A stretch of DNA of 64,000 nucleotides, from contig NW_027117349.1 of the NCBI RefSeq assembly GCF_038025025.1, positions 186,001 to 250,000 on the forward strand, written 5' to 3'. This stretch comes from Phyllosticta citribraziliensis (Eukaryota). The number at the start of each line of letters is the position of its first letter. Within the stretch, counting starts at the first letter, position 1. The notes below the pieces were generated by a model. The model ran no database searches and was not told where the DNA came from. It saw nothing but the letters and a program-made list of their open reading frames with translations. This document shows positions 25,653 to 30,858 of the stretch, piece after piece. Made by a program: the position numbers and the translations under genes.

Positions 25653-25983
25653 GAACTTGGCAAGCTCGCGGTGGGGAGGGTGAGGATCAAAATAGTCAGA
25701 GCAGTATGACTCGTCGAGCTGCTCAAGGTCCGCTAGAAGCGTTGTTTGTCAAAGATGCAAACACACTCGCTGGCTGTCGGCGGCGGGCACTCGGAGGTTT
25801 GCGCCGGCGGTGAGCCACATCTGGCATAGCGTCTGGCCGAAAAGTTGCTCCCTGTTAGAGATCAGCACGGCCCTGCGCGCCCCAGCCGGCAAACTGGACC
25901 AAAAGTTCCCGCAGACTTTTGGATGCACAACCGAACACTTCGATTCCGCCCTCGAAAAGTTTGCCTCCAAGCAAAAATTCACA

Positions 25984-27321
25984 ATGGGCTCGGGAAAGCT
26001 CGCCCTCTCGGCCAAGCACGCCCTTCCTTTCAAAACCGGCAACAAGCTGCAGCGCCAGGAGTTCCATCACAAGCAGAAAAAGGTTCGCGACAGCGCTGAA
26101 CGCGACAAGAGATTTCGACGGAAACGCGAGGAAGCAAAGAACCCCGAGCTCAAGAAGGCCAGACTTGCCCAGAATGTACCAGTCACAATCGACAAGAAGC
26201 GCACATGGGACGACGTGGATGGCGACGAGGAGGACATTCTCAACCACGCCGTGGATGTGGAGAGGCTGAAGAGACAGAAGCTTGCCGCCGAGGAGGCTGA
26301 AAGAGACGAGGAAGCAAAGGCGGGAGAAGAGTTCGAGGGTGATGATTCCGAGGACGACCGCGACAGCATGTTGGACGAGTCGGAGAGTGATGGAGAGGAA
26401 GAAGACGAAGATGAGGAAGAAGAGGCCCCCAAGAAGTCTCAGAAGGCCAATTCGGAACCATCGCGACAAGAGCGCGGCTCCAGCCCAACTGGATCGACCA
26501 TGAGCACCAAGTTCAGCATGACACCAGAGTCGTTGGCCGCAAAATTTCCAGCTCTGTTCCAGCCTCCACGAGAACCCAAGATCCTCATCACCACCTCAAT
26601 CAACAGTACTCTACACGCACAAGCTGAAGTTCTCACGGACATATTTCCCAGCAGCACATATATTCGCCGCACCGCTCACCGTTATGGACACAAGTACTCA
26701 ATCCGGGAGATTTCCAAATTTGCCTCGAATCGCGACTACACCGCAGTCGTCGTGCTGAACGAGGACCAAAAGAAGCCTTCGGGCTTAGACATCGTCCATC
26801 TTCCGAATGGTCCCATGTTCCACTTCAGCATCAGCAACTGGGTTGATGGCAAGAAGCTGCCCGGCCACGGAAATGCCACAAACCACTATCCGGAGCTCAT
26901 TCTCAACAACTTCCGCACACCTCTTGGTCTCTTGACCGCACACCTTTTTCGCACCATGTTCCCCCCTCAGCCAGAGATTCAGGGCCGACAAGTCATGACG
27001 TTGCGTAAGTGACGACACCCATCCAACGCCCCTATACCACAACGCTAATCCGCGCTCTCCGCAGACAACCAACGCGACTACATTTTCGTGCGGCGACACC
27101 GGTACATCTTCCGCGACAAGCGACCCTCGGAGAAGAGCGTTACGGACACAGATGGAAAGCCGATCCAGGGCGTAGAAGACATCAAGACCGGACTACAGGA
27201 GCTAGGGCCGCGCTTTACGCTAAAGCTACGCAGGATAGACAAGGGCATCCAGCAAGCAAGCGGGCAGGAGTGGAAGTGGCAGGCCGGCAGCGAAAAGGTG
27301 CGCACGAGGTTCGCGCTGTAG
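25984..27321 (+). CDS. RPF1: Brix-domain ribosome biogenesis factor Rpf1 (intron 27005-27064)
   Basis: [53 protein letters not shown]. Confidence 0.92.
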
Positions 27322-27602
27322 GACGCCTGCATGGTCCTGTTCGAGATGGAAGTACCAGTACAGTATTACCTACCCATCCAACTGTTCTATCGAGTTCGCC
27401 ATTTGACCAGCGCAGTTGTTTGTTCGATATGCTTGCTTTCGGGCATCGCGCTCATCTGATTGGGCCCACGTGAGCGCGATTGTAGGTAATCGGCCCCTGA
27501 CACGCTACTAACACGTGCCGCCCCACACAAAGCCCTACCCCACTTCATAAATCAAAAAAGTCAGTTTCTTTTCAAACTCAAGCTTGATTTCAATCAAGAA
27601 AC

Positions 27603-27768
27603 AGTCCAGTGACGCAGTGGCTAGCGTGTCGTTCTTATATTTATCCCCTCTGCGGGATGAGTATGGCCTCTGTGGTTATGCGAAAGTCGAGGGTTCGACC
27701 GTAAGTTCCGTCTTACATTCATCTGAGATGAATTTTATGCTAACCGCTCGAAAAGCCCTCCTGGACTA
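27603..27768 (+). tRNA. tRNA-Ile(UAU) with a canonical tRNA intron (27640-27677) and a second, spliceosomal-type intron (27701-27755)
   Basis: After removing both introns: acceptor AGTCCAG/CTGGACT (7 of 7 pairs), D-stem ACGC/GCGT with GG in the loop, anticodon arm TCGTT-CT-TAT-AA-TGCGA, variable loop AAGTC, T-arm GAGGG-TTCGACC-CCCTC (5 of 5), discriminator A73. Confidence 0.88.
27701..27755 (+). other. U2-type spliceosomal intron signature inside the tRNA T-arm (between positions 60 and 61)
   Basis: Donor GTAAGT at 27701, branch point GCTAAC at 27739-27744, acceptor AAG ending at 27755. 55 nt, matching mRNA intron size in this window. Confidence 0.82.
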
Positions 27769-27778
27769 GGACTGTAGC

Positions 27779-27784
27779 TTTTTT
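27779..27784 (+). terminator. RNA polymerase III terminator (T6) after the tRNA
   Basis: TTTTTT 10 nt downstream of the discriminator base, followed by further T-runs. Confidence 0.7.
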
Positions 27785-28590
27785 GACCTTTCTTTTCTTT
27801 TTTCTTTTTTTCGTTCCCACGTCGGCTAATGACCGATGATATCATCACTGCCTACCTACAGTACAGTCGTGTTCATTAGGCACACAACCCCTTTTGATAT
27901 ATGATCTATTTGTTCACTGTATCTCTCCCTTGGCTTACCCCTTTGCTTATCCCTTCCCCTGTAGATATTTTACGCACTGACTACTGCCCCCCTGTCCTTA
28001 ACCAATTTTGGTAGATTGATCGTACGGTTATGGTTATGCCCGGCATAAAGAGGACTAGGCAAATGGAGAATCTATGGAGCAAGGCAAGGGAGAGTTACAA
28101 TGACCATATCTCACCACGACTTCATTCTGCACTTCCAACTTCCACCTTATGCTCGACGAATTTCACTCGCACTTCCAGCGCTGCTGTTCAACCAAGACCG
28201 ATTGGTGCTATAGCTGTTGTACCAATTTGACCCCAACCTGTTCCTTGACGCAACCAGCAGACAGTCTCTCATAATATACACACCGCCAATTTGATCTGTC
28301 AGAAGCATTCCGTAGCTACAATCATAAGACGTACATTCCAAATCGCCCAATTTGCAGCGAATGACTCCAAACCGCGTACCAAAAGAAGAACTAAACCAGC
28401 CAAACCAGACGTCAAGAAGAAAGATCCCAGCCCAAGAGGCAATTTGAGAAGTGAAGCAAGCCTTGCTTTTCTCGTGAGTTCATCACCAACCACCGCGTCT
28501 CCTCCTCTCACTGTCCAGCGCCCCCAAAGCCACGCCAACCCCAAAGACACCCAGTTCCCACGCTCCCGCTGTCACCGGGCTTGCAACGAG

Positions 28591-30858
28591 CTACTTGCAG
28601 CAAGAGCCCTTGTCGTTTCCAAAAGCCAAGCGACTGACACCGTCAACGACGCCTCCCACGCCCGCCGCATTGCCCTTTGCCATGCTGGACGGGGTGCTGG
28701 AGTAGCTGGGCGGCACGTCCATGCACGGGTTGCGGTCGAAAAAGTTGCGCGGGCGCAGCAGCAGCGTCATGGGCTCGGCGGGCATGACGGGGAAGTCCTC
28801 GGGCGCCGGGAAGTGCGTGATGCCGAACGTGTGCCACAGGACGACGTCGGTGTTTTCGACGGACGTGTGCGGCGACGCGGCGATCCAGGCGGGCAGGCCG
28901 GCGCTGGGCTCGCCGCTCGTTTGCGGCACGTGGCGGCCGGCCGGGTGGATTTGCTCGTCGTCGTCTGCGGTGGTTTGTAAGCTTTGGGTCGGCTTCGATA
29001 TAGGGGAAGGGGGAGGGGAAAGGGGAAAGGGGTTAATGGTGACAAAGGTGTTTCTTACACTTGGTAACGTGGATGGCGTGACGCGCGAAGCCAGCGCGCT
29101 TCCACACCAGACTGCCCTCCTTGGGCAGCAGAGGGGGCACCTCGCGGCTCACCAGCTTGTAGCTGACGGGCTTGTGCGAGAAGGGGTTGAGCTTGTTCGG
29201 GTTGCACATCTCCCAAGTGCGGCCCGTGTTGCCATCGTAGTCGCTGGTGCCCTCTCCCTGCGTCTTGAGCGGCGTCTTCTTGCACCAGAAGGCGTTGCCG
29301 TAGAAGTTCTCTGCCGAGCCAACAGGGGCCTCGCCGGGAACAGCATCAGCGACCACGACCGAGTTGTTCGGGCCGTCAATATTGGGATCGAGGCGCAAGC
29401 AGAACAGGTGCTGATGGTTGTGCGCATTGACACCAGGGTAGACCTCGGTGCCCCAGCCGTGCAAGTCCTCGCCGGGGTTCATCGCGTAGGTGTTGAGGAT
29501 ACCGGTCAGCTTTATCTCCAGTTGGATCGTGCCGTCCTGGTGGAAGATCCAGTACACGCAGTACTCGTAGTTGGCGGCGGTGAAGATGTGCGAGATTATG
29601 AGCTTGCGCGCCCTCGTCACGGTGCATGATTCATCGCGGAAGTCGGTGTGCTTGAAAAGGATGCCAGCGTCCTCCTCGTGGATGCAGATGGCGTTCTTAA
29701 TCGTCTGTGCTTGGCCTGCCCTGTTCACAAACGATGCGTCCATGTAGTGGATGGCTCCCTTGCAGTCGCATCCGAGGGACAGCGAGTTGGTCATGTATCC
29801 ACCGCCGTACTCACCCAGGTCAAAGGCGTGCTTGCGCTGGTGGGGGTGCTCGGGGTTTCCGTAAGGGACGACCATCTCAGCGAGAGAAATGCGCCAGAAG
29901 ACGGGGCGAACGTTGCCCTTGTCGTTGAAGGTAACGTTAGACAGGACGATACCCTCCTTGTAGTTGAACCCAATGTGCAGGTTCCAGTTTTGCCACGAGA
30001 TGGTGCGGCCATCCATGTTGAAAGAGACTCCTTCGGGCTGCGTAATGTTGATGGGCTTGCAATCCGTCCGGAATCCACTTTCAGCCTCAATGGCAGCAGC
30101 GTGGTAGTTGATCGGCGGCGCGGTGCTGAGCGGTCTCCTGACCTTGGGGATGTCGATGTGAATGATTTCTTGGGTGTCGGCGTTGAAAATGGGGCAAAAG
30201 TCCAGCGGGAAAGCATACTGGCAGTCGTCAGGAGACGGCCGGTAGTACATGAGCGCTTGTTGAAGGCGGATCTGGTTGCCAAAGCGCTCGTCGTAGCCAA
30301 TCGTCCAGGCTGCTCCTTGTTAGCTGCTGATTTCGAGAAGAGGTTTTCCCAGACGTACGGTCACAGTAAACCTTGTGCATATCCTCCGGTGGAATGCCAA
30401 TGATGCCACACTGCTCAATGACCTTGGGGTCCTTCCGTACAATGGCTTCGACACCCTGCAGGTCCTCCATGGTAATCTGAAAACAAGTCAGCATAAGTCT
30501 TCCAGAGAATTGTTGGCACACTCACCAAAGGCTGGACGCCATCAGTCAAGCCCCAAGACACAATGGTCTCTTTCTCCAAATCCACCACGCCATCGTAGAC
30601 CTTGCTTCCTCTCCCAATGCATACAACATCCGCCATGCGCTTTGGCTTTGGAGCCGTCTTGGGGCTCTCCAGCCATGCCATCATCTCCTTCTTCCGGGGC
30701 TCCCATAGTGTCACAGCGTTGAAGTGGACATCTGGGTGTTCCTTCCGGATAATGGCGACAGACTTTTCAATTTCGACCTCAGAAAGGGGATCGAGAGGGT
30801 GGTGAGCAATCTGCCCCGTAACGTGGGAAGCGAGCTGCTTAACGCGTTCGAGCACCAT
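28591..30858 (-). CDS. Copper amine oxidase (TPQ-dependent), 4 exons
   Basis: HPLDPLS, TPQ motif TAANYEY, Cu ligands HNHQH and HFP, EDFPVMP. Introns near 30479-30526, 30310-30358 and 28965-29058. Confidence 0.95.

Follow-up and report, generated by a model that had tools for sequence, protein, structure and literature searches.

Introns of the messenger RNA (mRNA) type interrupt the genes for U6 small nuclear RNA (snRNA) in many fungi, fission yeast among them (Tani & Ohshima 1989/1991 and Canzler 2016, as cited in PMC5855946), with up to four introns per gene, at lineage-specific positions and with canonical splice signals (PMC5855946). Spliceosomal introns have also been described in ascomycete ribosomal DNA (rDNA) and in the genes for the U1, U2 and U5 snRNAs and for U3, a small nucleolar RNA (snoRNA) (Bhattacharya 2000 and Takahashi 1993/1996, as cited in PMC5855946; PMC5832005). 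The list of such non-coding RNAs in the excerpt of the review PMC5855946 includes no transfer RNA (tRNA), and the review calls experimental validation still 'necessary'. Spliceosomal and tRNA introns are treated as unrelated classes in a 2025 paper, which counts Ile-UAU as one of the tRNAs whose canonical introns are conserved (PMC12530127), and the four-subunit tRNA endonuclease of fungi and animals measures from the folded tRNA body and removes introns only between positions 37 and 38 (37/38; PMC10485636). These four sources are cited, here and below, from excerpts. Here we describe a tRNA-Ile(TAT) gene in a 64,000-nucleotide (nt) stretch of Phyllosticta citribraziliensis DNA (contig NW_027117349.1, positions 186,001 to 250,000; 'the window', whose own numbering is used throughout) that is interrupted twice, by a 38 nt intron at 37/38 and by a 55 nt insert with the signals of a spliceosomal intron at 60/61. 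What is new is the spliceosomal-type intron in a tRNA gene beside an endonuclease-type one, such introns in other non-coding RNA genes being already known; no account of a tRNA gene with a spliceosomal intron came up in a search of literature available without subscription.

The gene occupies 27603-27768 on the plus strand, and it and its trailer are organized as follows, where RNA polymerase III is abbreviated to Pol III and X2 and X3 are public RNA runs described below:

27603-27639, plus strand: tRNA exon 1, comprising the 5′ strand of the acceptor stem, the D-arm, the 5′ strand of the anticodon stem and the loop with TAT to position 37 (sequence, ARAGORN).
27640-27677, plus strand: canonical tRNA intron of the endonuclease type, 38 nt, following position 37 (ARAGORN placement at 37/38).
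27678-27700, plus strand: tRNA exon 2, comprising position 38, the 3′ strand of the anticodon stem, the variable loop, the 5′ strand of the T-stem and seven T-loop letters (sequence, ARAGORN, relatives).
27701-27755, plus strand: spliceosomal-type GT..AG intron, 55 nt, at tRNA positions 60/61 (sequence, X2 RNA contig, deletion scan).
27756-27768, plus strand: tRNA exon 3, comprising the 3′ strands of the T-stem and acceptor stem and the discriminator A (sequence, ARAGORN).
27769-27811, plus strand: 3′ trailer, opening with GGACT and containing T6 at 27779-27784 and then T4, T6 and T7, resembling a Pol III terminator (sequence, relatives, X3).

The resemblance to the fungal U6 genes is considerable (PMC5855946). 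Both are small structured RNA genes of the Pol III kind, with short introns that have canonical 5′, branch and 3′ sites, lie at lineage-specific positions, occur several to a gene (up to four in U6, two extra ones in the related tRNA gene L006 described below) and have unconserved interiors. There are two differences. First, the host is a tRNA and not a component of the spliceosome, and the explanation offered for U6, reverse splicing into RNAs at the catalytic centre, is therefore not directly applicable. Second, an endonuclease-type intron is also present, so that two unrelated splicing systems would converge on one small RNA. The introns of rDNA, snRNA and U3 genes are similar in being short, in occupying fungal non-mRNA genes including ones not transcribed by RNA polymerase II (Pol II), and in reflecting recurrent independent insertions into conserved structured regions; they differ in that none of these hosts is a tRNA and that direct RNA evidence is sparse for most of them (PMC5855946; PMC5832005), whereas an exact junction is present in RNA contigs here. 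As with the non-canonical tRNA introns of archaea and red algae, the interruption lies outside 37/38, where there are sometimes several (PMC10485636), and genes of this kind are therefore missed by standard eukaryotic tRNA finders; those introns, however, are defined by RNA structure and cut by the endonuclease (PMC10485636), whereas this one has GT..AG ends, a branch motif and no convincing bulge-helix-bulge. Finally, the conserved 37/38 intron of eukaryotic tRNA-Ile(UAU) genes (PMC12530127) is present here too, and the second, mRNA-type intron is the novelty.

An initial sequence-only reading of the window had proposed that an Ile-TAT body is interrupted by a 55 nt GT..AG insert, that removal of the insert would give acceptor and T-stems paired throughout, and that standard finders might miss the gene; all three points are borne out. 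ARAGORN called no genes in the whole window and no tRNA under any of four option sets on a 301 nt excerpt, and Rfam gave no matches on the native window at gathering score; at E≤10 on 27300-28100 there was no tRNA, the sole Rfam match being a 16-bit snoRNA-like fragment far under its threshold. When 27701-27755 is deleted, ARAGORN reports a 73 nt tRNA-Ile(tat) with a 38 nt intron at 37/38 in three of the four option sets, the remaining one being the set that disallows introns, and the acceptor stem and T-stem of the model are paired at 7/7 and 5/5 positions, respectively. A scan of 676 deletions with ends around the insert gave a tRNA call in only ten instances, nine of them Ile(tat) and one an odd Gln, and the nine all have breakpoints inside the T-loop. 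Among these ten, only the deletion of 27701-27755 has GT..AG ends, and it is this deletion that restores the T-loop letters of intron-less relatives. By our own arithmetic, the chance that a random insert would start with GTAAGT, end with AG and carry CTAAC within about 18 positions near its 3′ end is approximately 3e-7. The behaviour of the finders, the deletion scan and the restored T-loop letters together thus confirm the two-intron tRNA-Ile(TAT) gene, far from chance expectation.

The insert has the signals of a U2-type GT-AG intron, with GTAAGT at 27701-27706, GCTAAC at 27739-27744 and AG at 27754-27755, and a branch A at 27743 that is 12 nt from the last intron base. The GCTAAC motif was correctly noted in the sequence-only reading, although its spacing of 11 nt before the terminal AG is not right, since those 11 nt include the AG. 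The same reading likened the insert to the mRNA introns of the window, and the comparison holds: its 55 nt compare with 60 nt (27005-27064) and 53 nt (27363-27415) for two RNA-verified introns in the neighbouring RPF1 gene, and 30 intron candidates defined by pattern in the window have a median length of 58.5 nt. Signals, size and the exact GT..AG excision described below point to the spliceosome as the machinery that would remove it. We considered the insert as a possible introner, and no second copy is present in the 64-kilobase (kb) window or in seven related loci. A hairpin may form within it at about 27717-27733, where there is a 17 nt inverted self-match.

Evidence for excision comes from a search of public runs, in which four of eight runs (X2, X3, X5 and X6) were aligned to 25700-28500 as assembled contigs, which carry no strand, transcript-end or local-depth information. 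Run X2 is from the same organism (organism A), as both of its aligned contigs match at 99% or greater likeness with no differences, and it is derived from RNA by way of complementary DNA (cDNA), because its 1545 nt RPF1 contig skips 27005-27064 and 27363-27415, both of them GT..AG introns. The second X2 contig (2032 nt) aligns with 27621-27700, skips exactly 55 nt with GT..AG ends, and continues through 27756-28500 and beyond. The joint 27700^27756 has 80 letters on its shorter side and no positional ambiguity, and the insert is very probably a real intron that is spliced out. Both the junction and the proposed order of events, with the mRNA-type intron removed before the tRNA-type intron, had been predicted from the sequence, and both find support here: the canonical intron at 27640-27677 is retained in this contig (27621-27700 without differences), and molecules therefore exist that lack the 55 nt intron and still have the one at 37/38. 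There is no X2 contig in 27536-27620 and none that retains the insert; contigs drop rare forms, and neither gap is used here as evidence of where transcripts start or how efficiently they are spliced.

A second organism (organism B) is represented by run X3, judged to be cDNA by the first RPF1 intron. Its 368 nt contig contains two tandem tRNA-like copies, the first of which has a T-arm without interruption, followed by a T7 trailer of its own. The second copy is the closest counterpart of the window gene, with two differences and one gap over 27616-27700, and past the equivalent of 27700 it runs straight into exon-3-like letters and a GGACT trailer; organism B, seen in RNA only, therefore shows the same junction. 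In X5, a 203 nt contig from a relative in a plant metatranscriptome covers 27603-27700 and its match ends exactly at 27700, which fits a spliced or intron-less form and a diverged intron equally. The X6 contigs (organism C) align on RPF1 only, with none at the tRNA gene.

Further members of the family were sought by scanning metagenomes with the 23 nt core of exon 1 (27617-27639), which is identical in the seven loci recovered (L001-L007); the same core has no match in prokaryotic genome contigs or viral contigs, as expected there. The 600 nt flanks of the seven loci have no similarity to the RPF1 or amine-oxidase genes of the window, the only tblastn match being the tRNA region as a mechanical open reading frame (ORF), and orthology with the window gene is therefore not established. 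Homologous canonical introns are present in all seven, and the motif complementary to the anticodon is common to all eight genes compared. Five of the seven (L001-L005) have no extra insert: L001, L002, L004 and L005, of which the last two are near-identical, are ordinary Ile(TAT) genes with the canonical intron only and Rfam tRNA scores of 43.8-46.9 bits, and L003 is cut by the contig end but is uninterrupted through the T-arm. The other two are interrupted. L006, on an 80-kb contig (oriented coordinates 528-760, the reverse complement of the stored locus), has the canonical intron plus two extra GT..AG inserts, and L007, on a 268-kb contig, has one insert:

L006 insert A, in the D-loop at 15/16: 58 nt, GTTAGG...CTAAC...TAG.
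L006 insert B, in the T-stem at 52/53: 54 nt, GTATGT...CTAAT...CAG.
L007 insert at 679-729, in the T-loop at 57/58: 51 nt, starting GTATGC, with CTAAC 11 nt before the end, and ending CGG.

ARAGORN finds a tRNA in L006 only when both inserts are deleted, deletion of either alone giving nothing, and the remaining 73 letters are identical to those of the intron-less L001. Rfam misses the window gene, L006 and L007 alike. The labels that ARAGORN gives to L001, Arg(tcg), and to L006 and L007 after deletion of their inserts, Thr(tgt), result from its placing the canonical intron at 34/35; we rejected these identities, as the anticodon loops match those of the genes called Ile(tat) letter for letter and the 37/38 rule gives TAT. 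A weak match to an snR75-like box C/D snoRNA lies about 90 nt from the tRNA gene of L003, at 442-512 (25.3 bits against a gathering score of 40, E 0.049).

Several features of the family as a whole are apparent. First, there are four inserts starting with GT at four positions (15/16, 52/53, 57/58 and 60/61) in three of the eight genes, all 51-58 nt in length and with CTAAC or CTAAT 11-13 nt from the 3′ end, and their interiors are dissimilar beyond these signals (the window insert having been compared computationally and the others by eye). Second, variation among the seven full-length genes is confined to acceptor and T-stem pairs (16 positions in all) and is compensatory. The standard stem pairs number 20 of 21 in six of these genes, the window gene and L006 among them; the one non-pair (31-39) is shared across the family, and the pair 6-67, which joins exon 1 to exon 3, is A-T in the window gene and T-A in L001 and L006. 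Third, the trailer starts with GGACT in the window gene, L001, L006 and organism B. This GGACT (27769-27773 in the window) duplicates the last letters of the acceptor 3′ strand, and in a precursor it might base-pair with the acceptor 5′ strand.

The reading that we favour, with a probability of roughly 60%, is that this nuclear tRNA-Ile(UAU) gene works and depends on the spliceosome and, after it, on the tRNA endonuclease. The primary transcript would be unable to form the T-arm, with the 55 nt mRNA-type intron lying between T-loop position 60 and T-stem position 61; the spliceosome would recognize GUAAGU, the GCUAAC branch site and AG, and excise the intron exactly; excision would restore the T-arm and acceptor stem and yield an ordinary intron-containing pre-tRNA; and only then would the endonuclease, measuring from the folded body, cut at 37/38 and tRNA ligase join the halves. 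Two considerations argue for this pathway. With 55 nt at 60/61 neither a T-arm nor a closed acceptor stem is present, which leaves the endonuclease nothing to measure from, and because the fungal and animal enzyme is limited to 37/38 (PMC10485636) other machinery is needed at 60/61. Transcription is probably by Pol III, judging from the gene architecture and the T runs: T6 begins 10 nt past the discriminator, further runs reach 27811, and together those of 27779-27811 would act as the terminator. A scan with a bacterial promoter and terminator model found no terminator-like sites, such a model being irrelevant to Pol III. The exons of the window gene are flawless and co-vary with those of the family, and L006 kept its exon identity through two insertions, which makes the case for a functional product; processing to a mature, functional tRNA is what such intact, co-varying exons would suggest.

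A number of observations weigh against it. First, the RNA evidence consists of contigs from ordinary libraries, which are incapable of showing a mature tRNA. Second, the X2 junction contig continues across the T runs over a stretch of at least 745 nt and, by its length, extends about 1.2 kb further into the convergent amine-oxidase gene. The spliced molecules may thus belong to long Pol II transcripts or to read-through RNA, or else the contig may combine overlapping transcripts of both strands. Third, a T4 run inside the 55 nt intron might weakly terminate Pol III. Fourth, the second X3 copy lacks its first ~13 nt, which are replaced by the trailer of the upstream copy so that it starts at the D-loop after T7, and two C-to-T differences lie in its exon 3, one of them turning the 53-61 pair, normally invariant, into G.U; this arrangement hints at redundancy and decay in a relative. 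(The T run and AAG that precede this copy also look like a 3′ splice site, and the D-loop position is that of the first insert of L006.) Fifth, L007 is apparently a decayed intron-bearing copy, looking dead because its insert ends in CGG and not AG and because the acceptor pair 4-69 is a T.T mismatch (19 of 21 pairs are retained). Finally, there may be a second, uninterrupted Ile-TAT gene elsewhere in the genome.

These observations are the substance of the alternative that survives best, in which the locus is a redundant or insertion-inactivated copy whose real intron is spliced from incidental Pol II or read-through RNA without giving a functional tRNA, AUA being read by another Ile-TAT gene or by an inosine-containing Ile tRNA. 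The passage of the junction contig through the T6, T6 and T7 runs into neighbouring sequence, the decay of L007, the additional copy beside the 5′-truncated counterpart in organism B, and the possibility of other copies beyond the window all speak for it. We nonetheless consider it unlikely. The window exons are without defect and fit the compensatory pattern of the family, the terminator-like T runs and the common GGACT trailer are kept, and no second Ile-TAT gene is present within the 64-kb window; moreover, L006 has gained two introns and yet its 73 exon letters still equal those of an intron-less gene, which would be surprising in a dead copy.

A different possibility concerns the polymerase only, and otherwise agrees with the favoured reading: the gene would be transcribed as a longer capped Pol II precursor, spliced co-transcriptionally, with the pre-tRNA released by RNase P and RNase Z. 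As a rule, splicing by the spliceosome is coupled to Pol II, and the junction-bearing contigs of both organisms extend past T runs, the 368 nt contig of X3 reading through T7. On the other hand, the terminator-like T cluster lies just 10 nt past the discriminator, the contigs lack strand and end information such that a long one may be a merger, and fungal U6 shows that Pol III transcripts can be spliced (PMC5855946); we regard a Pol II precursor as improbable. An assembly artefact, or a strain polymorphism in which the DNA of X2 simply lacks the insert, is very hard to sustain: the label of X2 as RNA is a tool's guess and the comparison included no DNA run of the organism, but the other X2 contig lacks two GT..AG introns of RPF1 as expected of cDNA, an artefact would not create perfect splice signals, and two metagenome assemblies, independent of one another, contain analogous inserts. 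An intron of the bulge-helix-bulge kind, excised by the tRNA endonuclease and with GT..AG ends by coincidence, is very unlikely even though archaea and some red algae have tRNA introns at places other than 37/38 (PMC10485636), since a crude script finds at most two of four central-helix pairs at any register (a weak test, as the canonical-intron control also fails the strict motif), the fungal-type endonuclease is restricted to 37/38 (PMC10485636), and all four inserts start with GT and have CTAAC or CTAAT 11-13 nt from the end, which is spliceosomal architecture and not a structural motif.

The genes on either side of the tRNA gene are convergent, with a Brix-domain (RPF1-like) gene upstream on the plus strand and a copper amine oxidase downstream on the minus strand, whose last domain-bearing ORF ends at 28591. 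In X2 the RPF1 contig ends at 27535, 68 nt upstream of the tRNA gene, and is followed there by adapter-like letters, which we take to be sequencing adapter; this suggests a frequent RNA end. The RPF1-like gene has, close to its 3′ end, a 53 nt GT..AG intron (27363-27415) with the unusual 5′ site GTATTA, which is skipped in X2 and retained in the X3 contig. Downstream of the tRNA gene, X2 RNA is continuous for more than 800 nt, from 27756 to the stop of the amine-oxidase ORF near 28591, representing either a very long 3′ untranslated region or an overlapping plus-strand transcript that starts at the tRNA locus.

Since inserts are found at other positions in L006 and L007, the introns were probably gained lineage by lineage, as in the fungal U6 genes, and they plausibly originated by reverse splicing into RNA followed by copying back to DNA. 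A broader proposal, to which we give about even odds, is that spliceosomal introns have colonized the Ile(UAU) genes of an ascomycete-like clade again and again (three lineages with no fewer than four insertions between them, in the D-loop, T-stem and T-loop), that these genes are still functional, and that the sole dedicated decoder of AUA would then require spliceosomal action on a Pol III transcript ahead of the endonuclease. If the product is a working tRNA, L006 and L001, with identical exons and with and without introns, respectively, offer a clean system for studying intron gain, and the family bears on the question raised in the excerpt of PMC5855946 of what determines intron insertion into non-coding RNAs; if the broader proposal is true, it is also a natural test case for the entry of spliceosomal introns into such RNAs by reverse splicing.

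Both classes of intron are present on one 73 nt RNA, and the mRNA-type intron is removed exactly, from molecules that retain the tRNA-type intron. Should the broader proposal be true, it would provide the first known tRNA that requires both splicing systems of the nucleus. If the product works, the hosts of spliceosomal introns (U6, U1, U2, U5, U3 and ribosomal RNA) extend to an RNA without a role in or near the spliceosome, and annotation that allows canonical introns only overlooks such genes without warning and may conclude, mistakenly, that an AUA decoder is missing. Supply of the tRNA that reads AUA could, hypothetically, be coupled to mRNA splicing, and if the product is indeed a working tRNA, the spliceosome is a part of tRNA biogenesis in these fungi.

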